A stretch of DNA of 63,737 nucleotides, the filler included, from Rhizaria sp. SCN 62-66 (Eukaryota), in the NCBI GenBank assembly GCA_001724265.1. It is 7 parts of 7 records of this genome, joined end to end, with 100 filler letters (N's around TTAATTAATTAA, not from the genome) between each part and the next. Parts side by side here need not be neighbours in the genome. Positions count along the whole stretch, not along the records: positions 1 to 9,545 come from MEDY01000571.1; positions 9,646 to 19,083 come from MEDY01000573.1; positions 19,184 to 29,663 come from MEDY01000574.1; positions 29,764 to 39,007 come from MEDY01000575.1; positions 39,108 to 48,352 come from MEDY01000576.1; 2 more parts are not named here. One strand, 5' to 3'. The translations under genes and the position numbers were made by a program. Positions 455 to 44,814 of this stretch are shown one piece after another (position 1 is the stretch's first letter; the number at the start of each line of letters is the position of its first letter). Below the pieces are notes generated by a model, which was not told the DNA's origin, ran no database searches, and was given only the letters and a program-made list of their open reading frames with translations.

Positions 455-3252
455 CCGAGGCCGCCGCGGCTGGCACGGCGCTGGCTGAGAGCGCGGCCCG
501 CCTGCAGGAGCGCGACGCCGCGCTCGCGGCGATGGAGGCGCTGCGTGCGCAGGAGCAGCGCGAAAGCCTAGCGCGCGCCGCGGCGGCCGCGGAGGAGCTG
601 GAGGCGTTCAAGGTCGAGCTGACGCGCGTCAAGGACTTGGAGGTGCTTGCGCGCGAGGCCGCGGCCACTGCGGAGCAGCAGCGGCGCGCGTACGCGCTGC
701 TGGAGGAGCAGGCGGCGCGGTCGCGCGAGGAGCTCGCGGCGCACGCGAAGCGCACGCAGGAGGCGTTGTTGCAGCAGGCGCTCGAGGCCGAGGAGGAGCG
801 GCGCGCGCGCGAGACGCAGGCGCGGCTCGAAGGCAAGCTGCGCGAGGACTCGGTGCGCGCCGAGGAGCAGCGCCGCGCGCAGGAGCTGCTGCAGCTGCAC
901 GCTGCGCGCGCCGCGGAGGCGCTGGCGGCGCAGCGGCGGCAGGCCGGCGAGGCGCTCAAGGTGCAGGCGCAGGTCGCGGCGGCCGAGGCGGCGGCGCGGC
1001 GCGCGGGCGACGAGTGCGAGCGGCTGCGCCGGGACCGCGCCGCCGTGGCCGCGGAGCAGGACGCGCTGCGGCGCGAGCGCGCGGAGGCCGCTGAGGCTGC
1101 GGCCGCCGCGCTGGCCGCCGTGGCGGCGCGGCGGGAAGACCAGGAAGCGCGAGCGGAGGCCGAGCGCGCCGCCGTGGCCGCCGAGCGCTTGGAGGCGGCC
1201 ACGGCCGAGCAGCAGCGCGAGCGGCAGCGCGAAGAGCAGCGGGACGCCGCGGCGAAGCAGGCGGAGCGGCAGCGGCGTCGCCAAGCGGAGGCTGAGGCCG
1301 CCGCGCTGGCCGCCGCCAAGGACGACCTGCGCCGGCAGCAAGAGGAGCTCGCGGCGGCCGCGCGCGAGGCTGAGGCCGCAGTCGCCGCCCGCGCGCGCGC
1401 CGCCGAGGCGGCCGTGGCGGAGCGGGCGCGCGCGGCTGCCGCTGAGGCCGCTGCGGCCAAGGCGCAAGTAGAGCAGCTGGCGCGGCAGCGCGCGGCCGAG
1501 GCCGAGGCGCGCGAGGCCGCTGCGCACGAGGAGCGGCTGCGCGCGCACCGCGAGCAGGAGCAGCGCCAGCGCTAGCAAGCCGCCGCCGCCGCCGAGGCCG
1601 CGCGCGCCGCGGAGCAGGAGCGTGAGCGAGCGCGCCGCGAGCGGGCCGCGCAGCAAGAGCAGGAGCAGGAGCAGCGGCGGCGGCGGCGCGCGGCAGCCGA
1701 GGCCGAGCTGGCGGCGGCGCGCGCGGCGCAGCAGCAACGGCGCGCGGCGCGCAGCGCGCGGCACGAGGACGAGCGGCACCGGCGGCAGCAGGCGCTGAGC
1801 GAGCTCCACCAGGAGCACTTGGAGCAGGTGCGCGCGGCGGCCGAGGGCGAGATGCTGCGTCTCAAGCGCGAGGCTGAGGTCGAGGCCGCGGCGGGCCGGC
1901 TCGACCTGCAGCAGCAGTTCCTGCGTGAGCAACGGCGCGCGGACGCGCGGCAGCTGGAGCTGGAGGCCGCGGCTGCGCGGCGGCAGCAGCGGGCCGAGGC
2001 CGCCGAGGCCGCGCTGGGCGCCGCACGCGGCCAGCTCGAGAGCGTGCGCGCGATCGTGCTGCGGGGGCAGGAGCAGCGCAGTGTGGCCGAGGCCCAGGCG
2101 CTGGCGCGCGGCCACCGCGAGGGCGCGCGGCGCGAAGACATGGACAACGACCGTGAGCAGCAGCGCTTCAGTAAGCAGGAGCAGGAGCAAGGACAGGAGG
2201 CTGAGCTCGATGAGGCGGTGAGTGTGAAGGCGGTGCTGGCGAAGCAGAACGCGCTTGAGCAAGAGCTTAAGCAGCTGCGCTTGCAACAGCAACAACAGCA
2301 GCAGCAATTGCAGACTGCGAGCTCAACCACGAGCTCGTCTCACTCTGCCGTGTCGAGTCGGAAGACTGTTGCGGGCGTCTTCGGCGACGACGACAGCGAC
2401 GACAGATTCGACGTGCTGAGTGACGCCGCCGTCAACGAGCTGGAGCTCTCTCGCGAGGAACGCGGCAAGCACCACAAGCAGTCTAAGGGCGGGCTCGATA
2501 TGCCGTCTAAGGGGGTCGGAGTCGGAGTTTGGGTTGCCCCGCACCGCTTCAGCACCACCACCACCACCAGCAGCAGCAGCTTGCAGCCACAGCAGCCGCA
2601 GCCGCAGCGTCGCGTGCCTGTGGTGTGGCACGGCGAGGGTACTCACGCTGACGAGCGCGACACGTACACTGCGAGAGCGACCGTTTCCAGCCAGCGCAAT
2701 GGTGGTCTCGACGACGACGATGATGGTGAGGACAGCGATTGCGAGAACGGCAACGGCTGCGGCGTCGGCCCTGGGGTGCGCAATAACGTTTACCACGTGG
2801 CGTACCCTCTGCCTCTCGACTCTCGGCCACAGCAGTCGCAACAAGGCACCTACGGCCACGGCCACGGTCACTCGGCCTCAGCTCCGGCCGCCCCTGCCTC
2901 GGCTTCGGCCGCCACTGTCCCGATGTCAGCCCACGCCTTTGCCCCCGCCCACAGCCATGCGCAGAGCCTCAGCGCGGCGCACGCAGCTGCGGTGGCTGCG
3001 GCGGCCGAGGCGGCGGCCGCGGCGGCGGCTGGCGGCGGCCGGGAAGTGAGCACCCTCGTCGCGGCCCGCGCTGCGCAGCGCCAGCAGCAGTACCAGCAGC
3101 AGCAACAGATCCAGCTGCAGCAGCAACAGGCCGCGGCGCGGGCTCTTGCAATGCGCCAGCAGCACCAGCATCAGCAGCAGCAGCAACCGCGGTTCCATTT
3201 TCCGGTGCACGTAGCGTCCCCTGACGAAACTATGGAAGTTCTCTACTCTTAA
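1..3252 (+). CDS. Long Ala/Glu/Arg/Gln coiled-coil protein with Sfi1-like W repeats near the N-terminus; 5'-truncated; reads through in-frame TAG 1573-1575
   Basis: ORFs 13..1575 and 1819..3252 share a frame. The only stop between them is TAG in CAG CGC CAG CGC TAG CAA GCC, and the EQRRAA-type composition is the same on both sides. The gene ends at TAA 3250-3252, where GC content falls. LLQAGWVRWQ, VLLAWQ and LLSAFALWR resemble Sfi1-type repeats (inference). Confidence 0.75.
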
Positions 3253-3661
3253 AATGCCTAACTACTCCAGCACCAATTCGTTTTAAGCTTACATACATTC
3301 TTATTCTTTCCAACTACTGAGGCGTATTACGTCCTCCTAGTCATGGCACAGTACGTTCTCAGTTCGAACTGAGGTGTGTTGCCGAAATACTCACGTCAGG
3401 TGTTCCATTCTTTACTCGACGCGGTCGCAAATTGATTTGTGGCTGTACAGTGGCTGTAGAGCATCCAACATGGTGGCGATTTTTGATTCATGATATATCC
3501 ATCGGTATTCGTTATATAGTTTTGTCAATCTCATAAACACACTGTTTAGTTTAGATATTGCTGTTAAATTGATTGGCTACTTTGATTGACACTGTCTTTA
3601 GTCTCATTGTAGCCTCTTTCAAATCCCATTTCGACACTGATCGAACTCGCTTCACAAAGAG

Positions 3662-4222: not shown

Positions 4223-4274
<52 letters not shown>

Positions 4275-6828: not shown

Positions 6829-8817
6829 ATGGCGTCGCGCAAGCAGCTGAACAAGCACTACCCGATCGACTGGGAGCCGTCCCACGGCACGTTGAACCAG
6901 GCGTCCGGCTTGCACCCGCTGCGCGACCGCATCAACAGCGCGACGGGCGCGCTCACGGTCCGCTTCGAGCTCCCCTTCGCGGTCTGGTGCACCGCGTGTG
7001 GGGCGCTCAACGCGCGCGCGCAGCGCTACAACGCGGTCAAAACGCGGCCCAGCGCGCATAAACACGATGACGACGCGGCGCCGAGCGGGGGCAATAGCAG
7101 CAGCAGCAGGGATAGGAGTGACCGCGACCACCACAGCAACAACAAGAACTACGGCACCGACAACGACAGTGCAAGTGACCGCAGTGGAGAGCACCGCGAC
7201 ACCGCTCCAAAGACGGATCGCGAGCTTGACTTCTTTTACTCGACCCCCATCTGGCGCTTCACCATGCCCTGTGCGCACTGCAACGCGCTTTTTTCGGTCC
7301 AGACGGACCCGGGCGCGCACGGCGGCCGCGGCGACTACGTCGTGACTGCGGGCGCTACGGTCAAAACGACCACGCGCGAGGCCACTGTGGAGCTGGGGCT
7401 GGAGCCCGTGGTGGGAACAGCGAAGACCGCAGGGCTGACAGGGACTGAGTATCCACGCTCTCCTAGTTTTAGCAGCAGCAGCAGCGTTGCTGGCATCATC
7501 GGCCCGCAACTACAGTCGCGCTCAGATTAGCCACATTCAGCTGCAGACTCGCACGCCGCCTCTTCACCATCCTCCATTCGTGAAACAGCGACCGCCAGCA
7601 GCGCATTGTTGTCGTCATTATCAGCGTCGTCATCCGCGTCATCCGCACTGTCGGCGTATGACGAGCGCGACATCGTGGACTTGGTGGTCCAGCGCGATCC
7701 GCGCGGCCGCGAACTGCACCGCGAACGCATGCGCGCTGAGCCCCTGTACGCGGCCACGGTTGCGGCGCGGGACCGCCGCCGCGGCGAGGCCGGGGCCGCG
7801 GCAGTCGCGGCGCTGCTGCAGCTTGACCGGGACCGCCGCAGCGGCGTCGTGCCAGCGCCCGCGCCTCCGCCCGTGAACGCGAGCGCGAGTGGTCAGGGCG
7901 AGGTGCGCGATAGCTACAGCGCGTATTCCTGCGGCAATGCCGGCGCCAGCGCGGGCCTCGGCGCTCCCTACGACCGCGGCACGCGGAGTGACGGGCCATT
8001 CGATCGCGCAGCGCCGTCGGACAGCGCTGCTCTGCTCGAGGGGGATGGGCTGTTGGACCGGATGCGCGCTGCGGCCCGCGAGCGGCGGCGCGATGCCGTG
8101 GCGGTGGCCGCGCAGGCCAAGGCGCACGCTGCGCGCGGGGACTGGTGGGAGAGCGCGCAACGCCAATAGCAGCAATATTCGCAGTATCATGGCTACTATG
8201 GCGGCTCCGGGGCGGCGGCGAGCGGCGGCTGGGCGCGGGCGCGGGCGCAGGAGGAGGCCGCAGACGCTGCCGCGGCCGCTGCGGCGATGAGCACGAGGAC
8301 GGTCAGCACAGTGACAGCGACGACGCTGGCACCGGCTGAGACGGCTTTCGCGGCGACCGGGGCTGCGAGTTCGAGCGCAAGTGCGAGCGTGGGCGTTAAC
8401 TCAGTGCCGTCGGCAGCAGTTGTGGCGTTCGCGGGGGCGAGCAGTGCTGCTGGCGGCGGGAACGCGGTTCGGAAGGGCAGGATTGCTGTTGTGGTAAAGA
8501 AAAAAGAGCCTGTCGTAGTCGCTGCTCCTGCTGACAGCACCGGCGCTCTAGGCAGTGGTCGCAGCTCTGACAGCCGTGGAGTTGCTGTTGCTGCTGCCCG
8601 CGGTGATCCTGCCGTCAAGCTTGAAGAAATGAGGCGTGGCGACGTTGGTATCGACACGGCTCGCGGCTCTGCGACTGCAGGGGCAAGCAGCGGGAGCAGT
8701 CAGGTGCCTGCTGCGACAGCTGCTGTCCCTATTCCAACGGACGCCACTGCTGATGTCGCTCCCTGTGTTGATATCCGGGTTAAAGAAGAATTCAGTAACT
8801 TTAAGAAAGAAAATTAA
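6829..8817 (+). CDS. YJU2B: Saf4/Yju2-family splicing factor (CCDC130/YJU2B type), 662 aa if the two in-frame TAGs (7528-7530, 8167-8169) are read as sense
   Basis: MASRKQLNKHYPIDWEPSHGTLN..HPLRDR..VRFELPFAVWCTACG..RYNAVK..YSTPIWRFTMPCAHC..VQTDP..DYVVTAGA matches the CCDC130 N-terminal zinc domain. ORFs 6829..7530, 7606..8169 and 8287..8817 share one frame and are separated only by TAG. Ends at TAA. Confidence 0.85.
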
Positions 8818-17955: not shown

Positions 17956-19083
17956 TTACTGCTGCGTCCGACCCTGTGGCGCAAAAAGCGCGAGCGCCCG
18001 CGACAGCTCCGGGTCCGTCGCGTACTGCCAGTCCGCGTTGCCACCCGCCGCGCTATCGCCGCGGTGATTGGGTCCCGCGCTCCGGTCGAGGCGGCCATGG
18101 TGCGCGTGCGCCGTCGAATGGTTCAGCGCGCTGGCCAGCTCGTGCTGCGTCTGCTCCAGCCGCGCGTGCGCCGCGCCCAGGTGGCTGTGCGCGCCGGCGA
18201 GGTGACCGTGGGCCGCCGCATAGTGACCGTGCGCAGCGGATTCGTCCCCCGCGGCGCCCGTGACACCACCCAGCAGCGACGCCTCGGCGACCTTGGGCAG
18301 CGCGGCGACCGTGGGCAGCGCTGCGGGCTGCGGCTGCGCGCGCCAGGACGGCAGCGGGGCGGGCGCGGCAACCGTGGCCAGCGGCATCGCCGGAGGCAGC
18401 ACGATCGCGCCCCACTTGGCGCCGGTCCCGGCCGCGTGGTTCGCAGCGCTGCTGGCGTTCACGGCGGTCTGCGGGGCCATCATGTTGTTGTGGGACGGGG
18501 GGGCACCGCCGAGGTAGGACACATTGATATTCGGCGCAACAGTATTGTTGTGTTTGTGCATAGTATTGAACGCCGCAGTGTCGTTACCAGCGTTCGCAGT
18601 GTTGTTATTGTTGAAGAACGAGTCCACTGGCACAGCCCAGCGGGTCGCAGTGACGTCTACGCCGCCACCGTTGTTGTTGCCGTTGTTCGCAGCGGGCACA
18701 TGAACAGTGACATTGTGCTTGCCCGCAACCGCGGCGGACTGCGAGGGGACAAAGTAGGACTGCGCCAGCGCCACCGTTGCGTTCAAAACGCTCTGGCTCA
18801 TCCGGTCGCTCGCAACTACAGTCGCGTTTCCGGTGCCATTGCGCGGTGCCACGGCTGCGGCCTGGAGCGCCGCGGCAGCGACGGCGGCGGACAGCGCATC
18901 GGCGCGCTCCCTAGCGGCCTCTGCACGCGCCCGCTCGTCGCGCTCCGCCGCGGCCACACGGGCGGCGGTCTCCGCGGCGACGGCCTCGGCGCGTTGCGTC
19001 TCGCGCTCGGCGACGTAGGCCGCGGCGGCGCGCGTGCGGTCCAGCTCGCCCAGCCGCGCCTCGGCCGCCGCGCGCCGCCGCTG
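17956..19083 (-). CDS. Hypothetical protein C-terminus (coiled coil plus Ala/Asn-rich region), 5'-truncated
   Basis: The frame is open from the contig edge at 19083 to TAA at 17958-17956, with coding-like GC and codon pattern. Confidence 0.65.
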   Translation of the reverse strand, partial: QRRRAAAEARLGELDRTRAAAAYVAERETQRAEAVAAETAARVAAAERDERARAEAARERADALSAAVAAAALQAAAVAPRNGTGNATVVASDRMSQSVLNATVALAQSYFVPSQSAAVAGKHNVTVHVPAANNGNNNGGGVDVTATRWAVPVDSFFNNNNTANAGNDTAAFNTMHKHNNTVAPNINVSYLGGAPPSHNNMMAPQTAVNASSAANHAAGTGAKWGAIVLPPAMPLATVAAPAPLPSWRAQPQPAALPTVAALPKVAEASLLGGVTGAAGDESAAHGHYAAAHGHLAGAHSHLGAAHARLEQTQHELASALNHSTAHAHHGRLDRSAGPNHRGDSAAGGNADWQYATDPELSRALALFAPQGRTQQ

Positions 19084-30376: not shown

Positions 30377-30977
30377 ACGCCTCGCTTCATTGCCTACACG
30401 CAATACGCGTCTAACATAACTTGCTCCCGACAACTACTGCACTTTATGCGCAGCACTAACGCTGGGAGCGTTCTGGAAATAAAAATGATCTCACTGATGT
30501 GATCATTGTCAGCATGATGTACATGTACTTATTTAATATTATCGCGGCTTTTGCGTGTGTATATTACAGCACACATTCGTTTGTGAGCTGACTGGCACGA
30601 ACGTTTCACTTTATTTTTCAACAAACACATTTACTCAGACCTAAAAGGTCAAATGATACACAAGACTTAATAGCTACGATAACTAAGATAACGCTGAACA
30701 TCTTGTACGTCAGAAAAACAACATGCCTACATGGTCATCGATGACGTGTGAGCTGATGTGATTGGAGTTATTATGTGGTGTGTATTACTAGGTGATGTCC
30801 ATGATGTGCGAACATGAACTTGAATCCACATAATGCAATTATCTAAAGCACTTACAAGTGTTTCATGTTGGTATTACTCGAGTCTCTGGCCTGGCCTCCT
30901 AACATCTCGTCAAATCAAGTTCAGGTAATTTACCCTCAACTTAAACTCAACTCACTGCATCTAAGCCCCTCAAGCAC

Positions 30978-33335
30978 TCACTACTCGCCCTCGTCGACCT
31001 CGTCGATGATGCCCGCGGCGGCGCGCGCCTCGGCGGCCGCGGCCTCCTCCTCGGCCTTAGCGCGCGCCTCCTCTTCCTCGCGCTCGCGCTGCGCACGCGC
31101 GCGCGCGCGCTCGTCTGCGCGCGCGCGGCGGTGCTCGCGGGCTGCGCGGCGCATCAGCGCCACGGCGTCCTCGACGAAGCCCATGAGCTCGGCGGCGATG
31201 TAGTTGGTCGCGGCCACGGCCTCGGGGTCGACGCCCGCGAGTAGCAGTTCCAGCGCCGCGGGCGCGTCGCGCGCGGCCGGGTCCGAGCCCGTAGTCGCGG
31301 TGTACGGGTCCGCCGCCGCCGCCGCAGTCGCCGGGTCGGCTGCCGCGGAGGCCAGGCTCGCAGCTTCGCGCGCGGCGGCCTTACGGTCGCGCTTGAACTT
31401 GCGCACCGCGGCCGCCTCGACCGCCTCCTGGTTCAGCGCGGGGGCCCCGCTGCCGTCCACACCCGACTGCTGCTGCTGCTGCTGCTGTTGCTGCTGTGCG
31501 TGCTTGGCGAGCGCTTGCTGGACCGCGGCGGCCTGCGCGGCCTCGAGCGCGCGCTCCTGCTCAACCACCGCGGTGGCAAAGTGCACGCGCGGGGAGAAGT
31601 CCTCGATGCGCCGGATGAGGTCGTCGTCAAACAGCGCGCGCATCTTGAGCCAGTCGGGCCGGTTGTCCGAGTCGGCGATCTGCGCCTGCGAGTAGCCCAG
31701 CAGGTACAGTAGCGCCTGCACGACAGGGAGCGGGCCGCGGAAGACGTTGTAGCCGCGCATCTCGAGCACCTGCTGGCGCAGCGAAAGCACGAGCGCCTGC
31801 CGGTGCTCGAACGCCGCGTCCTCGCGCGCGACGGCCAGCGCGCCGCCCTCGCCGTCCTCGCCCTCTTCGCCCTCGGAGGCGGCCGCGGGGACGGCGCCCG
31901 AGGCGGCGGCCGCGGCGGCGCGCTCGCGGCGGGTCTGCTCGACGAGCTGGTCGATCTCATCCCGGCGCGCGTCCTCGTCCTTGGGCACAACGCCCGCCAG
32001 CACGGCCGCGATGGCGGCGCGCGCCTTGCGCTCGCGGCGGTACGTCTCGCGGTCGATGCGCAGCAGCGTGTCCTGCAGCAGCTGCGCCAGCCGCGTCGCG
32101 TAGCCCACCTGCTCATCCGACAGGCGCCTGCCCTGCCCCAGCGTGTCGAGGCACACTGCGAAGGCAAGCTTGCGCTTCGAGAGGCGCGAGATGACCGTCT
32201 CTTCGTCGGCCTTAGCCTTGGCGACGGCCTCCTTGGCCTCGCGCGCGGCGCGCTCCTCGTCGCTCTCGACGGGCTTAGCAGCCTCGGCGGCGGCCTTGAC
32301 GGCCTCGGCCTCGGCCTCGCGCGCGTCGCGCTCTGCGCGCTCCTCCTCGGTCATCTCCTCGTCCTCCTCGGCGCGCACGCGGCGGCGCTCCTCCTCCTCC
32401 TCGGCCGCGGCCAGCTTGCGCTCCTCCTCGTCGGCCGCGCGCTGCTCCGCCTCCTCGGCCTGCTGCTCGCGGAGCTCGCGCTCGCGCTCCTCGGCCTCGT
32501 CGAAGGCCGCGTCCTGCAGACACGACTCGTAGTGCACGCGCACGGCCAGGTAGCAGCCCGCGTCGGGCAGCCCGAAGAGCTTGACCTGCTCGGCGCGCGC
32601 GCCCTGCAGCACGTTGGGCACGAAGACGGTGCGCGGCACCGGCGCGGGCTTGGGCAGCAGGCGCGAGACGTACTCGCCGGTAGCCTCGTCCAGGACCTCC
32701 TCGTACTCGTCCTCGACCGGCTCCTCGGGCTCGAACAGGTCGTGCGTGACGCCCTCGCCGAAGCTCAGCCGCTCCTTGAGCATGTCCACGGGGCCCGCGC
32801 CGGCGGACGAGGAGGACGACGCGTCGCTGCTGTTGCTGTTGCTGCTTTCTGGGACGGCGGGGGCAGCGGCAACGTACTTAAGGTAGTCGCCAGTAGCGTC
32901 GCGCTCGTAGCCCGAGGCCTCGCCGCCGGCGGCGTCGTAGGGGTCGTTGCGCAGCTCGGCGATGTACACGGCCGAGGCGTCGGTGGCATCGCGCAGCAGC
33001 TCACAGAAGCGCTGCAGCAGCCCCTCAAGCGAGTGAGCGCCGCGCAGGAAGGCGGTGAAGTGGTCCGCGCGCGCGGTGGCGTCGGCCGTCGCGGCCGCGG
33101 TCGCCGCCGCGGTGACCTCGGCCTTGCGCGCCTCAGCCTGCGTGTGCGCCTCGTCGCGCGTGGCCAGCGTGCGCGTCTTGTGCTCCGCACGCGCCTTTGC
33201 GGCCTTGGCAGCGACGTAGTCGCGGAGGTAGTGGGCGAGGAACTCGACCTGGTCCTGGGGCTGGCGCAGCACAACCTGCGTGAGGCCCTCGGACAGCACG
33301 TCGCCCACGTTCTCTTTCAGGTACGCAGCGTCCAT
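30978..33335 (-). CDS. DPY30-domain axonemal protein, radial spoke protein 2 (RSP2)-like; ends ...GAG TAG TGA
   Basis: The N-terminal Dpy-30 motif is MDAAYLKENVGDVLSEGLTQVVLRQPQDQVEFLAHYL. It is followed by a GAF-like segment (ASAVYIAEL, YLKYVAA, GEGVTHDLF, FVPNVL, GCYLAV, VCLDTLG) and Glu-rich coils. The ATG at 33335 follows a pyrimidine tract and CAG. Confidence 0.7.
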
Positions 33336-34183
33336 GCAGCTGGGGAGAAAGAAAGCGAAAACAAGATGCAAAGGTAGAGAAAGATTGTAGAAGTGAGTAA
33401 AACGATGTTAGTTAGGTCACAGGCAAGAAATGAAAGCAGGAGTGTCGCGGGTAGCAAAGAATAACGTTCGACTTGGAGTGGGAGGAAGAGTTGATAATGA
33501 AGCAAAGGATAAGTCACAAAGACGAGCTTGGGACAAGCCTCGATTAAATGAACAAATAAAAACGGTATTAATTAATCGTAATCCCAAACGACAATCCGTT
33601 CGACGGTGGTCTGACTCGCTGCCAGTCAGTAACGGACGGGGCGAAACAACGAGCCAGCAAGGTCAACGAAGCAAACGGGCGGCCGAGCTGTGGCTCGGCG
33701 GCCTAATTTCGTCCCCACCAAGTCGACTTGGACCACCACCAGCAGCGTTCCACAGCAAACACACCATAGAACCGGCGGGACGGGAACTGGTCTCGCGCGG
33801 CGTGAATATGCATTTTTAGTGGGTCGTGATATAAAGGCATATATGAAGAGTGACTTTTGTGCATTATGGCGATATTCGCGGCATGTTCTACGATCAACAG
33901 CGTGCTACAGCAGCTATGCCGCCGCTTGTTTCGCCACGCCTAATGGACTTGAAAGCCGTCCTCCGCTCTGCACGTTTCACGCCATTCCCTCGACTCTTGC
34001 CTTGTTCTCGCAACCACCATACGATATCTTCGCACTTTTTTTATTGCATATTACGATATGCACTCGCCATCTCTCTATTAATCCCTTCAAGCATCGCCTC
34101 TAACATGTCGCCTTTCCCTGTGCCCCACTTTCTCGCTTCCTCTCTCTGCTTCCCCGCGCGTGCAGAGACTGCTTTCGCGCGCC

Positions 34184-34506: not shown

Positions 34507-34540
<34 letters not shown>

Positions 34541-35365: not shown

Positions 35366-35921
35366 GCAAATCACGCTCATGCAAGGCTGAGGCTTGATGA
35401 CGTTCTTTAAAGAGTAAAATTGAAGGAGTTGGGAAGGGTTATTATAATATCATATTATGCATGTCTCCGGGAGTGAATGCGTGGCAATAGCGCGCGTTGG
35501 CTCTGGGAAGGTATTTATTGGCAGCAGGAGTGCTGCTGCGTCCGTCGTTGGTCGTCGTCGCTGTCGTTGCGAGTGGTGTGGATGTTGCGCTGTCTGTTCA
35601 CGCTGTCTGTTCACAACTTTTTTCGCAGACACGTCGCGCACACAACACACAACCACATAAAAGATACAATAGTTTAGTGAAACTTAATCTTATAACCAAA
35701 TTTCAATGGAATTACACTTTGAAATGTCCTGAATAAACAGTTTGTGGTTTGTATTGAATAGCAGAGTAACTAACAGGAGGAATCACTGAAGAGATAGGAA
35801 ATACTGGTGACATAATAGATTATGTTTGATGCAATGAACACGTTCAAATAAATGTACATACACGTGTCAAAGAACGTATGATGCTTGCTTCACTGCTATG
35901 GTGAAAACGAAGCGTATAAAA

Positions 35922-38900
35922 TTAGTGCAGTGCGTCAAGTGCTTCAGCCAACTTGGCCTCCTCCTCCGCAGCAGCGGTAGTTGCGGTGGCGGCGGCGGCG
36001 GCGTTAGCGTTGGCGGGGGCGGCATTAGCGGCGGCCAGCGCGGCCTTGAGCCGCTCGATCTCGCGCTCCTGCTCCGCCACCCGCGCCCGTAGCGCCGCGC
36101 CGCTGCCCTCGCCGCAGGACGAGCTGCCGCCCGCCGCAGTGGGCGTGACCGTGACCGCAGCCGCGCTGGAGGCGCGCTGGTCGCTCTCGGCGAAGGGCGA
36201 GGCGGCGCCCATGCCGAGCGCCCGCTGCGCGCGCGTGCGCACGTAGAGGTGCACGTCGCCGCGCGAGTAGAAGGGCCAGAGCTCCAGCATGCGCATGTCC
36301 AGACACGGCCACAGCGGCGCGGACAGCGCGCACGACGAGACCGACTCCGCGGCGGCTGCGGCCGCTGCGGCGGCAGCAGCAGCAGCGGCGGCGGCACTGG
36401 CGCTGTCAGGGACCGCCGCGGCGGCGAGCGCGACGGCGGCGACGGCGTGGACGGCGGCGGCGTGCTCGTAGAGCGGGTTGGCGAAGCGGTCGAGGTGCTT
36501 GGCGGCGACGGCGGTCCACAGCGACGTGGTGGCGCCGCGCACGTTGGCGGCGTGGCGTTGGCGCTCGCAGTCGAAGAGGAAGGTGCCGTATTTGCACGCG
36601 AAGACGTGCTCGGCGACGTGGCCCAGGAAGGCCGCCGAGAACTCGAAGGCGCGCGGGAACTGGCGCACGAGCTGGTAGACGCAGTCGAGCGTCTGCAGCA
36701 GCACGGGCGAGCGCTCCTCGCTCTGGTAGTCGCCGTCGCAGTGGCCGAGCCGCTGCGCGCACTTGTGCCCGAATGCGGGGAACTCCTTCTCAATGAGCGC
36801 CGCAAAGCCGCGGAAGGTGCGGCACTGGGGCTCGAGGAGCAGCTGCGCGATGAGGCACAGCTGCCCCGTGCGGTCCCAGCCGTCGGAGCAGTGCACCAGC
36901 ACCGAGGCGCCGCCGTGCAGCAGCGCGGCCGTCTTGGCGCCGCCCGCCAGCGCGAGCTGCACGTGCCGCAGCCACTCAGAGTCGGCCAGCGCGTCGAAGT
37001 AGCCCGCGGCGGCCGAGACGGCGCCCGCGGGGTGCGGCGGGAAGTGCGCTGGGGACACCACCGCGCCCACCGACACGCCGCCGCCGCTGCCGCCGGTGCT
37101 GCTGCTGGAGCTCGAGCTCGAACTGCTGCTGCTGCTGGAGCCGTTGGCGCCGCCGGAGGGCGCGCCTTCGCTGAGGCCGGGCGAGCCCGACTGTCCGCGG
37201 TCGCCCTCGCTGCCGTTGCTGTTATCGTTGTTGTTATGGTTCACAGCGGGCGCGGCGGCGATAGGCGGGGGCGCCACTAGCGGGTTCCCGGAGGCGTTAG
37301 CGGCGGCGACCGAGGCGGAGGCGGCCAGCGCGCCGGGCGCGGGGTTGATCTGCGGTGTCAGCGAGAGCGCGCACTGCAGCGGCCAGCGCGCCAACCAGGA
37401 CCACAGCCAGCCGCCGGAGCGCAGAACGCCGCCGCTGCCGCCGCCGGGCGCGGCCGCCGCCGCTGCGGCCACCAGGCGCGCGCGCGAGGGCTCCCACGCC
37501 AGCAGCGCCTCCAGCACCGACGCCTCGGCCTGCCGCGGGGACGGGGAGGCCTTCGTCTGCTGCTGTTGCTGCTGCTGTTGCTGCAGGGCGGGCGGCGGGT
37601 AGAGCACCGAGGTGTGGCCGCGACGGGGACGCGACTCCGGCTCAGCCGCAGTCTCAGCCGCAGTCTCAGCCGTAGTCTCAGCCACGACTGCCTCCGTCTC
37701 AGTCTCGGCGGCAGCATCGCTACTTAGGGCGATCGCCTTCACGACTGCGCCGTCACGAGGGAAGAGCGCGGCGCGGACGACGCGGGTGAGCCCGCGGAGC
37801 AGCTCTGGCCGCGCGCGCTGCCAGGCGGCGGCGGCGTCGCCCGCGCCGGCCATGCCCAGCACGGCGAGGTGCGCCTCGGCGGCCTCGGCGACCGAGGTGA
37901 GCAGCGCGTGGGCGCACTGCGCGCGGCACAGCTGCTGCACCTTCTTGATCGAGGCGCGCATGACGTGGATGTTCTCGACGCCCGCGAAGTGGACCGTGGC
38001 GCGGTACCACTCGTCGCGCTCGGCGCCGCCGCCCTTGACGGCGTTGGCGCTAGCGTTGGCGCGCGGCCGCGCGTCGACCACGTGCGTCACGCCGCTCTCG
38101 CGCACCAGCAGCTCGTCGGCCGCCGAGCGTGAGCCGAAGAGCCCCGGCTGAGGCTGCGATGAGCGCAGCAACACGGCGCCCAGCCCCGCGCCGCTGCTGC
38201 TGAAGCCGCCGCCGCTGAAGCCGCCGCTATTGGCGGGGCCGCCGCCGGGCGCCGAGGAGACGTGCCCCGCGCAGCGCGGCCAGTGCCCGTGCGAACACAA
38301 CGCCGCCACGGCAGCTAGGCCCGCGCCGTCGCCGCGGTCGCAGTCGCACAGACGGGGGTCGAACCAGCGCGCGGCGCGCGTGGCGTAAGTCAGCACGGGG
38401 AAGCGCGCACGCGCGCGGAACTTGGCGGCCTTGGCGACGGCGTCGTCGGCCATGGCGGCGGGGACGGCCAGCAGCGGCGGGTACGTTGGCGACAGCGCGA
38501 AGGCCGCGTTGGCCTCGGAGACGCGCCACGCGCCGGGCAGCGCTGTGGCGCCCGAGCCCACGGAGCCGCGCCCGATGGGGCCGTGAGCCTGCGCAGTGCG
38601 GCCAGAGCACGTGAACGACATCGCGCTCGCGCTCACGCTCGCGCCGCTGCTGCCGTCATTGCTGTTGCTCTCGCCGGGACTCGTGTAGTACGCGGGGGGC
38701 AGGGGCGCGACGCCGAGGCGGGCCAGCTCGGCGCGCGGGCACAGCACGCCCCAGCCGTCCTCGCCGGGGGCCAACGTGTACAGCCTCCCGGATCGAGAGC
38801 TAGAGCTAGAGCTGTCACACTGCATGGGTCCGAGCGCGAAGGCGAATGCGCGGAGCTGCGCGCGCCCGTGGCCGCCCAGAGCGGCAAGGCGCGACTCCAC

Positions 38901-39007: not shown

Positions 39008-39107
39008 NNNNNNNNNNNNNNNNNNNNNNNNNNNNNNNNNNNNNNNNNNNNTTAATTAATTAANNNNNNNNNNNNNNNNNNNNNNNNNNNNNNNNNNNNN
39101 NNNNNNN
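39008..39107. other. Artificial contig linker
   Basis: Same 100-nt spacer. Confidence 0.98.
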
Positions 39108-39408
39108 GGTAATCTAGGGATGTTTATTGGGGATGGGGGGTGCCTCAACATCACAAACATGTGGGGTGGGAGAGGCAAACGGCCCAATTCGCGACCCCCG
39201 TGTGACTGGCTACTCGCTGCACACCCTGCTGGCGAGCTGGGCAGGACTACAGTCATGTAACGCACCGGACAGTTGTTGGGTGCATCGTCAGTTAAAGTTA
39301 AAATGTGCCCTTGCGATTTAACTTCATTTTGTCAACTATTTCCCTTTATTTTGTCTTTACAGAGTGTATATACAGGCCTATTGAACAGCGTGAACGCTCA
39401 GTCAAAGG

Positions 39409-42400
39409 ATGAGCAAACGAGGTCATGGTACCTTGCCATCCAACGAGCCGTTGCCACGCCGTCGAAGCTTTTCAGAGCACCCTAAAGCGGCGTAGCTGGA
39501 GGAGTCAACCGCTAGTACGTCGCCAGCTATGACAAATGCAGTCTCCAAAAGCTCGTCCCCTTCTACAGTGCTTGGACCAGTCGTGGAGGTGCCTTTGGTG
39601 GTCCACACTGTGTCCTACCGCCCAGGCCACTGGTCTCGTACGCCCCGGCGCGCGCTCTCCACGCGCGCATCCATGACGACCACCAGAACAACTCGCAGCA
39701 GCAGTTTGGCTACCTCAGACAGCACAGCGGACGGGACAGGGGTTGCCGCTGCCCCCGCAACCGTTCCTTCCGCAGCGGCGACTTTGGCGCAACTGCACAT
39801 GAACACGCAAATCCAGCCCTCAGTGCATCGCAACGCCACGCACATCGAGCTCGAGCACGAGTCTCTCGCCGACGCGCGCTTTAACGACCTGGCGAACCCG
39901 GCCTCGTTTGTGTTCTCGTCGCAGTCCGCGCCGGCTCCCGCGCCGCCGCGCGCCGTGCGCTTCACGCTGCTGCCCACGGTCACCGCGGTCGGCCGCTAGA
40001 CCCAGCTCGGCACCGCCGCGGCCGCGCGCCCCGAGCCCGCGTCGCACGCGCTGCGGGCGTGCACGGACTCCAACGCCGTGGCGGGTGCGGCGCTGCTGCG
40101 GCGCGGCGGCAGCGCGCGCGGCCCGATGATGCGCCGCGCCCCGCCCGCGCGCGCGCAAGGTACGGTCGCGGCGCTGACCACGCCCGCGAGCTTTGGCGGC
40201 GTTGCCACGGGCCGCGGACCGAGACTCTTCTCCATGCGCCCGCGCTCCGCCGCCGCGCCCCATGAGGCATCGGCTACGGCGCGCGCCGGCCTGGGGCCCG
40301 GAACCTATGACGTACCCGCGCCCTCGGACGCGTTCCTCATCGCCGCGCAGCGCGAGGGCGCGCTCCGGCCGCCGCGCCGCGCGCACGCCGCGGCCGAGCC
40401 CGGGGGCCGAGTTGGCGTGGCCGCCGGCATGGGCGCGGGCGGCGACGCACACTCCAGAGCAGGAGGCGGAGGCGGCGGCGGCGGCGGCGGGGGCCAGGGT
40501 GAAGTGTCGCTGTGGGCGACGGCGTTGGGCGCGCACGCGGTCGTGGCGGCCCCGCCCATGGGCACGTTTGCGCGCACGGCGCGCTGGTCCGGCGAGGGCG
40601 CGGCGCTCACTGCGGCAGATAACTCAGAGTACGTGAGAGTGATACAGCGCAAACACACTGTAACTGACGGATATTTAGTATTTGCATCAGAGCACCTTTT
40701 ATATTGAATTCAATGTGTGTATATTCTTATTTTCTGTTTTTTCTTCTCTCTGCTTTTAGACTGACGACGACGACGTACGTCCCGACATTGCCGCCCAAGT
40801 CCCTGTCGCCGTCGCGCCGCCCCGCCACCGCGCGCGCCCGCACCGCCTTCAGCGGCGGCAACTTCAGTCGCAGTGGCGGTCTCCGTGCGGGCGCCGCGGC
40901 CTTGCGTGCTCTGCGGACGCAAACCGACGGCTTCGCGGCCGCCGCGCTGGCCGAGTGCCTCGACGGCGCGCTCACGGCCCACGACGGCGACGGCATCGGC
41001 GCCAGCTACGACGGCACTGGCTCTACTGGCACTGGCACTGGCTCGACTGACGTTGGTTTGACTAGCGCTGGCGCCGGCGCGGTGGTCGGTCTGGACTACC
41101 GGTCGGCGGACGAGCTGTGGCAGCTGGCCGACGCGGCGGACGCCGACGCCGCCGCGGCCGCCGCGCGCCCGCTCGCGCTCGGACTGGGCGTCGCGGCCGC
41201 GATGGAGCGCGAGCGCGAGCGGGCCCGTGAGCGTGAGGCGCGCGAGGCCCGCCGTGGGCAGCGCTCGGTGCGCGGCGGCGGCGGGGCAGCGTGGCGACAC
41301 GCGCTCGCAAGGAGCAACGGTGGCAGCACTGGCGGCGTGGGCGGCGCTGCGGAGGCTGACGCGGAGGAGGCGGATGTGGAGTTTAACGGCACGCTTGCGA
41401 CGCGGTACATGGGCCCCACGCCTGCGTGCGTGCACAGGGAGTCGCCGCCGCGACAGTGGCAGCGCCCCGGCACCGCACCAGAACATGCACATGCACACGC
41501 GCATGTGCATGCTCGTCGCGCCGCTAAAGCAACGGCCGTCCCGGCCACAGCAGCAGCGACGGCGCCAGCGGCGAGCGCAGGCGATTCGGAGCCCGATGCC
41601 CGTGCCACCGCAGCGCACGCGGACGCAGACGCAGACGTAGACGCAGCAGCAGCGCCGCCGGTGATGACGACGGCGGCGCTGGCCGCGTCGGTCGCCGCCG
41701 AGGCGAGCGCGTTGGCCGCGGCGGCGCTGAGCGAGGCCGCGCTGGCCGACGCCGCCCTGCGCACCAGCACCGGCAGCGGCAGCGGCAACGGCTACGGCAA
41801 CGGCCACGGTAGCGGCAATGCGCCCGCGCTGGGGCTAGGGCTGGGTGGGTTCGTGCGCACGCTCGACGGCCGCATCGTGCACGCCTCTGGCCGCGCGGGC
41901 GCCGCGCGCGCGCACATGTCGGCCCGCGGCGCGGCGCGCGCGCTGGAGCACGCCGTGGCGGCGGCGCAGCGCGAGGCGCGCGTGGCGCGGGCGGCGACAT
42001 GGGCGCCCTCGGCCGCGCAGACGCGTCTGCTGCGCACGCCACACGCTGTGCCCATGCGTGTTGACCGGCCCTCGGACCGCTACCCCTCGGCAGCGCAAAC
42101 CGCCGCTGACGGCGACGGCGACCGTGGCAGTGGCAGTGGCAGTGGCGGTGCGTTTGCGGCCGGGCCCCGCACGGCGACGGTGCGGTTCGCTGAGAGCCCG
42201 CACGGCCGCCTCGGCTGGGGCTCGTCTCACTCAGGCTCTGCCAGGCTCTCTGGCTCTGGCTCTGGCACTGGCGCTGGCGCTGGCGGCGGTCCTGGTGCGC
42301 GGCACGCTGGCTGGGTTGTGGGGCAGCTGCCCGCGGGGGACCGCATCGCAGACCGGCTGGCGGCGCTGCCGCGCGACGCGGACGACGGTGACACGCGCCA

Positions 42401-42884
42401 GCGGCAGCGGGCGCAGTCGGCGCTCGTGCGCAGGCTGTACAAGACCGAGCCGCTGCCGCCGCCGCTGGCCCCGCGCGCGCCGGTCGACTGGGCCCTCCCC
42501 AGCGCGCGCGCTGACAACACCGGCTTCAGCCGGTCCGGCACCGCAGCAGCAGCTCCGATGACTGCGGTTTATCCCGTGGCGGAGACCGGGCCTGCGGGGG
42601 AGGACGCGGCCGCGGCCGAGGCTGAGGCACTGGTGCCGCGACGGCGGTCCGAGCTGCGCGCGCTGGCCGAGGCGGCGGGGCGCGAGCGCCTGCACGAGCA
42701 CCTCGTCCGCCACGGTGACGCTGAGCCGCACCGCGCGCTCCAGGACGCGATCACCGGCGGCGGCCGCGCGCAGCACAGGCAGGGCCAGGGCCAGAGCCAG
42801 AGACTGAGGCAGCGTTCGGCGCGCGGGGGCAGGCCGGCGGCGGCGATGAGCGCTGAGCTGGACGACGATTACGGCCTGTTTTAA
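39409..42884 (+). CDS. Hypothetical two-exon protein with one STPG/SHIPPO-like motif (LGPGTYDV); two in-frame TAGs (39493-39495, 39997-39999)
   Basis: Exon 1 is 39409..40628, the phase-2 intron is 40629..40759 (GTACGT...TTTTAG), and exon 2 is 40760..42884, ending at TAA. Splicing joins ORFs 40078..40707 and 40704..42884 in frame. ORF 39529..39999 is in the exon 1 frame and is separated from it only by TAG. An alternative start is the ATG at 39529. Confidence 0.6.
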
Positions 42885-43065
42885 ACAAAACAATTGTTGG
42901 ATACCTAAACATTACTTTTACGAATAAGTTTACATAGACAATCGACGAATACATATATTGTGATTTTTTTTTAAATGATTAAAGTCGACTCTATGTATTC
43001 TTACTATGTAACATGATATTTTCTTCAATAGTGTTTGCAGGACGCTTTCAGATCACTGCAGAGGG

Positions 43066-44814
43066 TCAGATATTCTCACGCCCGGCCTCGCCCTCGTCGT
43101 CGTAGTCCCAGGGCCCCTCGTACTCGCGCTTGAGGTGTCCACCCTGCTGTCTGGCGAACACGGCCGGCGCAACGCACACCACGCCGGCCAGCGCGGCGGC
43201 GAAGCAGTGTCCGATGACCGGGGAGTGCGCGGTGAGCACCAGCCAACCCGCGGCGGCAAGCAGCGCGCTGGCGGCAGCGAACGCCCGCGGGCGCGCGCGC
43301 TCGAGCACGGCCAGCACGGGCGGGAGCCCCGCAAAGAGGACGCACACGGCGAAGAGCAGCGCGAACGCGTGGTCGGCGTCGCGCGGGAGCCGGGAGCAAA
43401 GCGCGACGCTGGCGCAGACCACGAAGGTGAGCGCGACGCTGCCGCGGGACAGGGTCGCATCGAGGCCATCCGGCCGCACAGCCGCACTCGCAGTCTCGGT
43501 CGCACTGGCGCTGACTCTGGCAGTCACTGCACTGCTGACGTCAGTGGCTGCAAATGCCCTGTTCGCCAATGCGTTATTTGTGTTGACCCTAGGATTCGCG
43601 GTGGCTTTGCCGCGACGACTGCGATCATGGGTCTCTCTCGCAGCCTTACCGTCAGTGCTTGTGTTGACTCGAGGATTGACTCTCGGAATCGCGGTCTCTC
43701 GTACAGCCTTACCGTTGTTGCTCTTGGTCTTCGTCACAGTGACGAGCCCTGACGCATCCATGTCCGTCGCATCGTCATCGCCGTCACTGACACGATCTCC
43801 ACCACCCACGTCAACGCCATCATGCTAAACGCCGTAGCTGACACTCGGACTCGCATTCGCAACATCATCATGTGCGAGCGCATGCTCGTCCTGCCCCGGC
43901 TGCTGCGGCGGCGGCGCCGAGTAGTCGTACGCCGCGACGTGCAGCACGGCCGCCAGCGCTGTCGCGCCCAGCACGGCCCGGTCCGAAAGCGCGCTGGCGA
44001 GCTCCCCCATCGCCGGCGCCAGCAGCAGCAGCGCGAAGGCCAGCAGCGCGAGGCGCCGCGACTGGTGCTTGACCGCGCGCCGCAGCTCCTCGCGCGCCGC
44101 TGTCGCCGCCGTCGCCGTCGCCGCCGTCGCCGCTGGGGCTGCGGCTGCGGCGGTCAGAGCGCGCCAGCCCCAGACGAGCGCGAGGGTGCCGAGCGCGAGC
44201 GCGGCGAGTGAGACCGACACAATGGCGTGCGGACCGGCGGCGCGGACGGCCGCGGCGGCGGTGCAGAGCGCGTGGCCGAGCGGGGAGGCCGGGAGATCGC
44301 CCAGCAGCAGCGGGGACAGCAGAGGCAGCGTCGTGGACCGGTGCGGGCAGGAGAAGGGCGGCAGCAGCGACGTGGGCTCCGCGACGAGGGGACTCGCGGG
44401 CGCGAGCAACGAGAAGAAAGCCGCCAGCCAGAGCGCGACCGAGGAGAGGCGGCAGGCGAGCGGCAGGGCGCGGAACATGAGCGCGCGCAGCGGCCGGCGG
44501 CGCGCGGGCAGAGTGGCGTTGGTGACCAGACACGCGAGAAAGGTGTCGTCGGTGTGGTTGTCTGGGTACGGCTGCCGCGCGTATAGGATCTTGCGCCACG
44601 GAGGGCGCGGTCGCGGCTGTGGCGCAACAGCATCCAGAATAGTCCCAGAAGCAAGAGCAGCGACAGAGGCAGTTGTTGTGACCCTCTTGCGGCTCGCTGC
44701 AGTGACCGTCGTTGTTGTCACATCCGCGGACGCTCGGTCCACTGATTGCGCAGCCGAGGCTGCTGGCTTGCGGCATCGATTCATTGGCGCCAATGCGCCG
44801 TAAAATGTGCGCAT
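43066..44814 (-). CDS. PIGC: GPI-GlcNAc transferase subunit PIG-C/GPI2, 582 aa if TAG 43827-43825 is read as sense
   Basis: The N-half has WRKILYARQPYPDNHTDDTFL, LAPAMGELASALSDRAV and LHVAAYDY. The C-half has CASVALCSRL..HAFALL and KREYEGPWD. Both halves are in one frame with a single TAG between them. Ends at TGA. Confidence 0.9.

Follow-up and report, generated by a model that had tools for sequence, protein, structure and literature searches.

In-frame TAG triplets in the genes of a GC-rich wastewater eukaryote and a proposed reading of UAG as glutamine

Nuclear codes in which UAG is uncoupled from UAA

UAG and UAA are usually reassigned together. A change confined to UAG is, as such, already known in several lineages and has been reported for a handful of them (PMC5304391, PMC11687900). 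According to PMC5304391, Iotanema spirale reads UAG as glutamine and retains UAA and UGA as stops, with UAA as the main terminator, while the rhizarian exLh (Sainouroidea) reads UAG as leucine, with 384 in-frame UAG codons in 71 genes, mostly at conserved leucine positions, and with 56 UAA, 15 UGA and no other terminators. PMC11687900 describes further UAG-only codes for Hartmannula and Trochilia (glutamine), three TARA phyllopharyngean MAGs (leucine; tRNA(CUA) genes reported in two of them), Protocruzia (glutamine) and Scotinosphaera (serine). An earlier note on the DNA analyzed here had listed uncoupled cases without Scotinosphaera, Protocruzia and the phyllopharyngean ciliates, and that list proved incomplete when compared with PMC11687900. 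Codes in which both UAR codons encode glutamine occur in Amoeboaphelidium, ulvophytes, hexamitids and many ciliates (PMC5304391, PMC11687900), and ambiguous stop/sense codes in Condylostoma, Parduczia, karyorelicts and, for UAA, Blastocrithidia.

The window, as we call the whole 63,737-nucleotide stretch analyzed, consists of seven pieces of about 9 kb from one eukaryote separated by N spacers. The organism, derived from wastewater and bioreactor metagenomes, is GC-rich (55-77%) and intron-poor, and its gene content includes mitochondrial EF-Ts, a PEX11-like gene and axonemal genes. Because of these genes and its GC-rich genome it is unlike Iotanema or the ciliates, in agreement with the earlier note, and among the UAG-only lineages named in PMC5304391 and PMC11687900 none is GC-rich and aerobic with peroxisome and flagellar genes. 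The window contains no eRF1 gene, and no tRNA genes were found within it.

Stop triplets and gene ends in the window

All seven TAG triplets that had been reported for this DNA were recovered with the same coordinates, strands and frames, and on pieces 1, 5 and 4 as placed before. Six had been described as internal to genes; this stands for 1573, 7528, 8167, 39997 and 43827, which lie within the coding sequence of four otherwise intact genes (Table 1), but not for 39493. The latter found no support as an internal TAG, its flanks scoring negative in both 40-codon windows (-24 and -12 bits) and 80-codon windows (-66 and -20 bits), with two in-frame TGAs no more than 40 codons upstream and an ATG downstream at 39529. 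At least four real genes carry TAG in frame, and the sequence at these sites is correct.

Table 1. Coordinates of TAG sites, genes and introns along the window
Feature	Position	Strand	Details
Coiled-coil gene, cut by piece start	1..3252	+	TAA end
In-frame TAG	1573..1575	+	Ala/Glu/Arg/Gln-rich coiled-coil gene
Yju2/Saf4-like splicing factor gene	6829..8817	+	662 codons, two TAGs, TAA end
In-frame TAG, Yju2-like gene	7528..7530	+	Ser-rich 90-residue insert, weak codon bias
In-frame TAG, Yju2/CCDC130-like gene	8167..8169	+	Context CAA CGC CAA TAG CAG CAA
TAG TGA end of Dpy-30-motif gene	30978..30983	-	Gene body 30984-33407
TAG put forward earlier, unsupported as coding	39493..39495	+	Flank scores, upstream TGAs, later ATG
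Gene with TAG 39997	39529..42884	+	Exon 1 to 40628, exon 2 40760-42884, TAA end
In-frame TAG, strongest case	39997..39999	+	Exon 1 of long gene with PG-rich motifs
Inferred intron of gene 39529..42884	40629-40759	+	GTACGT...TTTTAG
GPI2/PIG-C gene ORF	43066..44856	-	First ATG 44814, TGA end
In-frame TAG in GPI2 (PIG-C) gene	43825..43827	-	Inside 149-codon insert
Spliceosomal intron, PEX11-like gene	45692..45864	+	GTACGT...ACAG, 173 nt, absent from cDNA contig

Among the 14,343 codons of 22 gene segments, five TAGs but neither TAA nor TGA were found in frame, so the earlier statement that TAA and TGA never interrupt intact genes holds; TAG makes up 0.035% of codons. That only TAG interrupts genes is true of the counts but constitutes weak evidence, because about 72% of random nonsense mutations under this codon usage would be TAG, and a mutation-only model yields five TAGs out of five with P ~0.19. 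Two presumed pseudogenes with TAA or TGA may instead be intron-containing genes (54269-55762 and 49185-50258), and no other gene interrupted by these codons was seen in the window. The argument is weakened further in that GC-rich genes, read in the codon-aligned antisense frame, are routinely broken by TAG only.

Of all 2,827 stop triplets, from either strand, that could be evaluated in an unbiased codon-usage scan, only TAG 39997 and TAG 8167 had coding sequence in the same best frame on each side, the latter passing at both window sizes. The TAG-bearing genes contain no frameshifts, codon bias is intact downstream, and neither a start codon nor a low-GC spacer follows the TAGs. Sites 7528 and 43827 are located within inserts of weak codon bias, and none of the five TAGs occupies a conserved alignment column, all residing in non-conserved or low-complexity stretches.

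The revised count for the 18 gene ends is 12 TAA, 5 TGA and one TAG followed by TGA. Compared with the earlier tally (12 TAA, 6 TGA, no TAG alone), the number of TAA ends and the lack of a lone TAG are unchanged, while TGA drops to five. The apparent ends TGA 40705, TGA 49182 and TAA 54959 were counted as intronic; all are downstream of GTACGT 5' splice sites, and since a 3' splice site was also identified for 40705 and 54959, these two stops appear to lie inside introns. At 30983, the sole TAG among the 18 ends, the 80 codons upstream score +69 bits and the 80 downstream, which include many stops, -60. With an assumed TAG share of 20%, the probability of at most one TAG end in 18 is ~0.10. 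Because one gene ends in TAG-TGA, TAG may still terminate; we estimate that a terminating TAG accounts for this ending about ten times better than a rare sense codon that happens to come last.

Genes carrying internal TAGs and their sequence support

GC3 flanking TAG 39997 is 0.92 upstream and 0.98 downstream (50 codons each), and the 20-codon windows spanning it reach a GC3 of 1.00 and the top coding scores of the gene. The intron of this gene was predicted from sequence and the GC drop at GTACGT; the exon join, checked by hand, is continuous in frame with ORF 40668-42881. A DNA contig (X3 record 1) and a polyA-RNA contig (X8 record 24) cover the TAG without mismatch, both stopping 7-8 bases past it, which is short of what was counted as bridging.

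The Yju2-like gene matches Pfam Saf4_Yju2 with 78.5-80.8 bits. P0001 and P0002 are listed as separate proteins in the public library, although both are fragments of this one gene, and P0002 stops exactly before TAG 8167. Residues 75-132 of the nearest homolog, P0003, correspond to query residues 132-193 and residues 134-181 to query residues 284-331, placing TAG 7528 (query residue 234) between segments that are contiguous in P0003. Since P0003 matches both sides of this TAG, the gene continues in frame, and no credible intron that would remove TAG 7528 was found. The next-best library match shows 51% identity, with query residues 1-77 as its longest aligned stretch.

In the GPI2 gene, the insert divides the match to Pfam GPI2 into positions 98-159, which immediately precede it, and 161-270, which immediately follow it, and the two halves are significant separately (70.7 and 50.2 bits vs a cut-off of 24.4). 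TAG 43827 is the only stop in the frame of this insert (shuffle P 0.024). The insert stretches around 7528 and 43827 are of intermediate GC (0.50-0.62). Around TAG 1573, composition and period-3 pattern are alike in the two flanks, and GC content is much higher than in any UTR. An antisense codon-aligned ORF (571-2322) scores nearly as high as the gene itself (326.7 vs 364.2 bits), so the strand at this site was chosen by the extent of the ORF and the plausibility of the protein; TAG 1573 is internal to a plus-strand gene, with the strand call less certain, and was read from the window sequence alone.

Both 39493 and 43827 are bridged, at 0 differences, by contigs from other runs; at 43827 these are X3, X4 and X5 contigs, bridging without a joint, with X3 and X4 originating from other studies. 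L001, a metagenome contig from a separate assembly, agrees at 2,952/2,952 bases, including 7528 and 8167. Because the other-run contigs (39493, 43827, 39997) and L001 (7528, 8167) show identical bases, the TAGs are not assembly errors but genuine DNA. The population varies very little, with 0 differences in most contigs across runs of different years and studies. In addition, the X8 polyA-library contig (39752-40007) contains TAG 39997 and an X5 contig (43731-44050) contains TAG 43827 unspliced and unedited, each with 0 differences; both are assembled, DNA carry-over is possible, and the X8 contig stops 8 bases past its TAG. X5 is a cDNA run that also contains a spliced contig, record 21, in which 45691 is followed directly by 45865; the missing segment has GT..AG ends, and the shorter flank of the junction measures 197 letters.

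The five likely introns all start with GTACGT at a sharp GC drop and finish with YAG after a pyrimidine tract, at a GC of ~0.3-0.5, and in-frame stops do occur inside introns (TGA 40705, TGA 55433). GTACGT with a GC drop is absent from every TAG neighbourhood and no credible intron surrounds the TAGs, which upholds the earlier view that by the splice signals of the organism they are not intronic. Among GT..AG pairs spanning the TAGs, the sole full-score 5' site, at 39515 and belonging to a pair around TAG 39997, was rejected as an intron start, because the resulting segment has 65% GC, scores as strongly coding and would break the frame.

Possible readings of UAG and comparison with described codes

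On balance, we lean towards the reading that UAG is a sense codon, glutamine being its likeliest meaning, with UAA and UGA staying terminators. The earlier claim of this sense is sustained insofar as TAG is in frame in real genes and TAA and TGA are not; it is tempered by one gene end with TAG and by glutamine being derived from context. Neighbour-residue log-likelihoods (Gln +6.5, Tyr +4.1, Leu -0.2) would favour glutamine. The codons 3' of the five TAGs are CAA GCC, CCA CAT, CAG CAA, ACC CAG and CAT GAT. The glutamine context signal would also be expected of CAG-derived nonsense mutations. Under the glutamine reading, cytoplasmic ribosomes would decode UAG by means of a tRNA-Gln-derived tRNA with anticodon CUA or a very efficient near-cognate tRNA-Gln(CUG), eRF1 would recognize UAG poorly, and TAG codons would arise chiefly via synonymous CAG-to-TAG transitions. 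The rarity of TAG (five in 14,343 codons, ~1% of Gln codons) is compatible with a change that is recent or not yet complete. More tentatively, a deep-branching GC-rich wastewater flagellate lineage without earlier sequence might be at an early, ambiguous stage of an independent shift of UAG to glutamine, with UAG at ~1% of Gln codons, mostly beside CAG/CAA-rich stretches, and at the end of at least one gene, backed by UGA. If true, this would be a natural instance, in a GC-rich genome, of stop-codon reassignment by the "ambiguous intermediate" route.

A doubtful though conceivable alternative is dual use, in which eRF1 still stops at UAG and internal UAGs are efficiently read through by a near-cognate tRNA-Gln or a weak suppressor; the codon would then be ambiguous, its outcome depending on context or closeness to the mRNA 3' end. 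The Dpy-30 gene, with its TAG TGA end and non-coding sequence beyond, would fit such leakiness, as would the very low share of sense TAG (0.035% of codons), but the TAG-TGA end is a single observation, with one terminal TAG vs five internal ones, and functional GPI2 and Yju2 products would hang wholly on read-through. Termination in eukaryotes is weakest when C occupies position +4, and C follows 4/5 internal TAGs vs 2/18 real TAA/TGA stops; however, ordinary Gln codons here also precede C (49%, P 0.17), so +4 C does not single out leakiness. The tobacco-mosaic-virus type read-through motif, UAG-CAR-YYA, is present at none of the five sites, which also speaks against it. We consider it unlikely that the standard code applies and the TAGs are premature stops (fixed nonsense, null alleles or young pseudogenes) or that the ORF pairs are separate genes. 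Owing to the abundance of CAG, GAG and AAG, 72% of random nonsense mutations would yield TAG, two sites are within fast-evolving inserts, and P0001 and P0002 are stored as separate proteins, though this merely results from standard-code gene calling. Nevertheless, the standard code would require five nonsense changes in four of ~20 genes with zero frameshifts; codon bias is fully kept downstream (GC3 0.98 after 39997), halves of the GPI2 domain and of Yju2 flank the TAGs, neither start codons nor low-GC spacers come after them, and the sequence is identical across years and studies at very low diversity.

That the TAGs never reach the ribosome, owing to unconventional in-frame introns or RNA editing (e.g. 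A-to-I, giving UGG), appears improbable. The organism does have introns containing in-frame stops (TGA 40705, TGA 55433), and 7528 and 43827 are in inserts relative to homologs with a GC of 0.50-0.62. On the other hand, 5/5 likely introns are of the low-GC GTACGT type, from which the TAG surroundings differ, the GPI2 insert frame stays open (P 0.024), and RNA-library contigs keep TAG 39997 and TAG 43827 unchanged and unspliced. Least probable is an assembly or sequencing artefact or a strain mixture: the DNA source is a metagenome and 1573 rests on one assembly, but at 39493 and 43827 the bridging X3 and X4 contigs show 0 differences, and L001 is identical over 7528 and 8167.

Each uncoupled case informs how release factor and suppressor tRNAs separate UAG from UAA. 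If confirmed, the reading of UAG as glutamine would add an independent origin and may show an early stage of reassignment; because the genome is GC-rich, codon capture via AT pressure, with AT-driven loss of TAG, cannot be its cause. Standard-code gene callers already split public proteins of this organism, and since P0001 and P0002 are a split Yju2 gene, the MAG needs re-annotation.

Relative to the described codes, as far as they are covered in the sources cited, the proposed stop-to-glutamine change resembles the UAR = Gln codes, in which, however, TAA is also sense, whereas here it closes 12/18 genes and is never in frame. One terminal TAG beside internal TAGs would fit the dual use seen in ambiguous codes, but in those organisms the ambiguous codon is frequent and at most gene ends, whereas TAG is rare here in both roles. 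The uncoupling of UAG from UAA, found via in-frame UAG in genome or metagenome data, would be shared with Hartmannula, Trochilia, the TARA MAGs, Protocruzia and Scotinosphaera, which unlike the present organism are ciliates or a green alga. As in exLh, UAG would be sense, with UAA and UGA as terminators; in contrast to exLh, there are five such codons in ~20 genes and their context disfavours leucine (-0.2 vs Gln +6.5). Iotanema is an anaerobic fornicate, unlike this organism with mitochondrial EF-Ts, a PEX11-like gene and 55-77% GC, and the meaning of its UAG was set from many conserved columns (PMC5304391), whereas glutamine is suggested here by sequence context. The likeness to I. spirale, whose code has the NCBI table 15 pattern, would consist in UAG alone being changed, UAA being the main terminator (12/18 here) and glutamine being the favoured meaning.

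Coding evidence and sequence correctness at the TAG triplets

All seven TAGs listed in the earlier note were found in the sequence where it had placed them. A codon log-odds table trained on nine uninterrupted ORFs was applied to all stop triplets of the two strands, with flanks of 40 and of 80 codons; the 40-codon flanks could be evaluated for 2,827 triplets. A triplet passed if its frame outscored the other five frames on both flanks. Only TAG 39997 and TAG 8167 passed, along with no TAA and no TGA. Third-position GC at TAG 39997 was 0.92 upstream and 0.98 downstream, and the 20-codon windows across the site were the top-scoring ones of the gene.

Homology carried the reading frame past two further sites. 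In the GPI2 gene, Pfam positions 1-63 and 98-159 (70.7 bits) were matched before TAG 43827 and positions 161-270 (50.2 bits, cut-off 24.4) after it; a single GPI2 domain therefore continues from one side to the other of a 149-codon insert in which the TAG lies. This TAG was the sole in-frame stop of the insert (shuffle P 0.024), with 2 and 13 stops in the other two frames. With the Yju2 protein as query, an exhaustive HMMER search returned 485 homologs, the top two of which were fragments from the organism itself that end exactly at the two TAGs. The nearest homolog from another source (P0003) aligned with its residues 75-132 to query residues 132-193 and with residues 134-181 to query residues 284-331, and this alignment beyond the insert places the gene in frame past TAG 7528 (residue 234). 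The composition of the coiled-coil gene containing TAG 1573 was unchanged past the site. Its codon-aligned antisense ORF scored 326.7 bits versus 364.2 bits for the plus strand, which was chosen for its frame, open over 1,084 codons, reaching non-repetitive sequence and ending in TAA before an AT-rich tail. TAG 39493, previously counted as an internal sense codon, was unsupported, as its flanks scored as non-coding and an ATG follows at 39529. A perfect GTACGT is located at 39515, 54 nt upstream of CCCCTTCTACAG and in frame with it (39515-39568, +); should this stretch prove to be a very short intron, it would take in the ATG, and a coding role for TAG 39493 would become possible. No RNA contig over 39493 was present among the contigs listed.

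The cross-run sequence check covered TAGs 7528, 8167, 39493, 39997 and 43827, while TAG 1573 lies outside it. Contigs from two runs of other studies (X3 and X4) bridged 39493 and 43827 without differences, and a contig of the cDNA run X5 also bridged 43827. TAG 39997 was covered without differences by contigs from X3 and the polyA-RNA library X8, both of which stop 7-8 bases past the site, short of the bridging rule. A separately assembled metagenome contig (L001), which may share its source with the window, was identical at 2,952 of 2,952 overlapping bases including both Yju2 TAGs. The population showed almost no variation across runs, and the TAGs were constant there. One X4 contig at 45890-46127 carried 9 differences within 240 bases of the PEX11-like gene, the rest of the four runs being nearly identical; a paralog, an allele or another strain could account for it.

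Introns and gene ends

In a contig of the cDNA library X5 (record 21), 45691 is followed directly by 45865 and the excised stretch has GT..AG ends, proof of a spliceosomal intron of 173 nt within the PEX11-like gene. Of 155 hexamers resembling a 5' splice site, 12 coincided with a sharp drop in GC; six of these were GTACGT, five of them on the coding strand and considered likely introns (see table). All five start with the identical GTACGT, mostly preceded by A, and the four inspected (all except 49214) have a pyrimidine-rich tail that closes with YAG and a length of 131-199 nt. This uniformity of the 5' splice site, in a GC-rich genome with few introns, may assist lineage placement.

Features of the window, with GT..AG pairs spanning each TAG
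Feature	Position	Strand	Detail
TAG, coiled-coil gene	1573	+	7 candidate pairs, 0 with length a multiple of 3
TAG, Yju2	7528	+	34 candidate pairs, 10 with length a multiple of 3
TAG, Yju2	8167	+	31 candidate pairs, 6 with length a multiple of 3
TAG	39997	+	32 candidate pairs, 13 with length a multiple of 3
TAG, GPI2	43827	-	16 candidate pairs, 12 with length a multiple of 3
Yju2 gene	6829-8817	+	
GPI2 (PIG-C) gene	43066-44856	-	
Likely intron	40629-40759	+	candidate
Intron, PEX11-like gene	45692-45864	+	
Likely intron	49214 (start)	-	
Likely intron	54908-55063	+	three-exon gene
Likely intron	55363-55561	+	three-exon gene
HEAT-repeat-like gene	48453-50258	-	ORFs 49185-50258 and 48453-49019, the latter running off the piece
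Three-exon gene	54269-55762	+	no Pfam match
Antisense of large gene	30847-33036	+	
Antisense of large gene	35920-38151	+	
Antisense of large gene	57811-60693	+	

From this intron set we infer that the ORF with TAG 39997 and the following ORF form a single gene; no RNA contig across the 40628/40760 junction was found among the contigs listed. TGA 40705, TGA 49182 and TAA 54959 are accordingly treated as intronic and not as gene ends. The first ORF of the HEAT-repeat-like gene probably continues past its intron into the second, and TGA 49182 would then not end the gene. TGA 55433 is, like TAA 54959, in frame but intronic in the three-exon gene, which may be one of the two pseudogenes that had been described as interrupted by TAA or TGA.

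After these corrections 18 gene ends were tallied, the one at 55760 being provisional. Of the 12 TAA, six TGA and no lone TAG claimed before, the TAA count stood, TGA fell to five and one end reads TAG followed by TGA. Canonical-looking 5' splice hexamers overlap three gene ends (on the minus strand, GTAAGT at 17956-17961, GTGAGT at 30978-30983 and G|GTAAGT at 47004-47009) and were judged coincidental, arising from a G before TAA or TGA and a G after it. GTGAGT 30981 and GTAAGT 17959 were rejected as splice sites, the likely introns all being GTACGT and no coding sequence lying beyond.

Weight of the TAG pattern and its meaning

Removal of the TAGs by splicing or editing was examined through all GT..AG pairs of 40-700 nt that span a site, requiring at least 3/4 consensus positions at the 5' site and YAG. 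Only TAG 39997 among the five has a full-score 5' site (GTACGT 39515). The intron that this site would give, 485-491 nt long, has 65% GC and a strong coding signal and would break the frame. For 7528 and 43827 the leading candidates begin within residues aligned to homologs. The likely introns start with GTACGT, contain TGA or TAA in frame and have a GC content of about 0.3-0.5, which makes them very unlike the TAG neighbourhoods. Moreover, TAG 39997 and TAG 43827 were unchanged and unspliced in RNA-library contigs, in which DNA carry-over is possible. Interruption by TAG only proves less than it seems, because nonsense mutation is biased towards TAG and antisense frames are broken by TAGs as well. 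With the codon usage of the window, 72-73% of one-step nonsense mutations lead to TAG, and at that share five of five internal stops would be TAG with P about 0.19. Within the window, frames that lie antisense to GC-rich genes and in register with their codons run for 700-960 codons with TAG as the sole interruption, and those of three large genes were open for 730-961 codons with 8-9 TAGs each, a trap when TAG reassignment is read from ORF length alone in GC-rich DNA. The case rests on TAG density (four of about 20 genes), zero frameshifts, undisturbed downstream codon bias and homology, and constancy across runs. On this evidence TAG is most likely translated, with UAA and UGA as the terminators, and reassignment of TAG to sense stands at slightly better than even.

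A leaky or dual-use TAG is the less probable reading, at perhaps one chance in five by our judgement. The sequence beyond the TAG-TGA end of the Dpy-30-motif gene is clearly non-coding. Taken as nothing but a rare sense codon (0.035% of codons), TAG would stand last in one of the 18 genes with a probability of roughly 1%, versus a coincidence of a few percent for the adjoining TGA in an otherwise expected event if TAG still stops; on this single observation we lean towards some retained terminator function. With assumed TAG shares of 20% and 30%, no more than one TAG among 18 ends would be seen with P about 0.10 and 0.014, respectively. C follows TAG at four of five sites. Since C also comes after 49% of Gln codons, against 26% of codons in general, this pattern fits Gln codons better and was no longer taken to indicate weak termination.

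As a sense codon, TAG would best be read as Gln, our best guess from sequence context. A naive-Bayes comparison of three residues on each side of five TAGs with neighbour statistics of the window's proteins gave, in natural-log units, +6.5 for Gln, +4.1 for Tyr, +1.9 for Arg, -0.2 for Leu and -5.4 for Ser; the Gln score was driven by two Gln-rich sites, and TAGs derived from CAG would give the same signal. Self-similarity around the TAGs yielded low-complexity matches only, such as the trivial alignment of CAG/CAA in other CAR tracts with TAG 8167. No conserved alignment column at a TAG and no close relative was found in the libraries searched, and the 485 Yju2 homologs were all too distant for an alignment at the TAG positions (best non-self identity 51%, longest stretch query residues 1-77).

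Source organism and comparison with known codes

The window of 63,737 bases comprises seven pieces of 5.9-10.5 kb with 55-77% GC each, and between successive pieces there is a spacer of 12 letters flanked by 44 N on either side. L001 extends 28 bases (its positions 2953-2980) past the end of piece 1 at 9545, so the pieces are cuts of longer contigs and not whole contigs. Library contigs on which these proteins are recorded reach 69 kb. A public-run search located piece 5 in metagenomes of seven studies (wastewater, bioreactor, activated sludge and fuel cell), and it marked one run as a possible source. The Pfam content (Yju2/Saf4 splicing factor, GPI2, myotubularin phosphatase, EF-Ts with a weak mitochondrial N-terminal domain match, papain-type protease, TOR fragment, Dpy-30-motif protein, EF-hand protein and CASC1/IC97-like axonemal protein) therefore describes a flagellated, aerobic eukaryote. 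It is intron-poor, with open frames reaching 5.9 kb. Scans of the window found no tRNA genes and no Rfam families.

Yju2 neighbours were from a sponge, zoopagomycete fungi and Plasmodiophora, those of myotubularin (30-54% identity) from a EukProt entry, a haptophyte, a pelagophyte, plants, a slime mould and fungi, and the clusters returned by the Atlas for EF-Ts were from chlorophytes and plants. With nearest named neighbours as diverse as opisthokonts, Rhizaria, haptophytes, stramenopiles, plants and Amoebozoa, no lineage placement follows. A PDB sequence search with GPI2 gave no matches; word-based searches with GPI2 and the TAG 39997 gene were empty, which is not evidence of absence since Ala-rich low-complexity words filled the 8,000 candidates. 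Metagenome scans returned 313 pattern matches without a confirmed relative for the TAG 39997 gene and only the identical L001 for Yju2. A trypanosomatid was rejected on account of the spliceosomal introns.

No report of a UAG-only code in a GC-rich wastewater flagellate was listed by full-text literature searches, which is not proof of absence. Amoeboaphelidium was rejected as the source because UAR means Gln there, according to PMC5304391, versus TAA as the main stop here; PMC11687900 likewise lists both UAR codons as changed. UAG-only changes are described in these papers for Iotanema (UAG = Gln, stops UAA and UGA) and the rhizarian exLh (UAG = Leu, stops UAA and UGA, 384 in-frame UAGs in 71 genes; PMC5304391), as well as for phyllopharyngean ciliates, Protocruzia and Scotinosphaera (PMC11687900). 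The UAG-only reassignment proposed here would thus be of a known kind, in a lineage that may be new.
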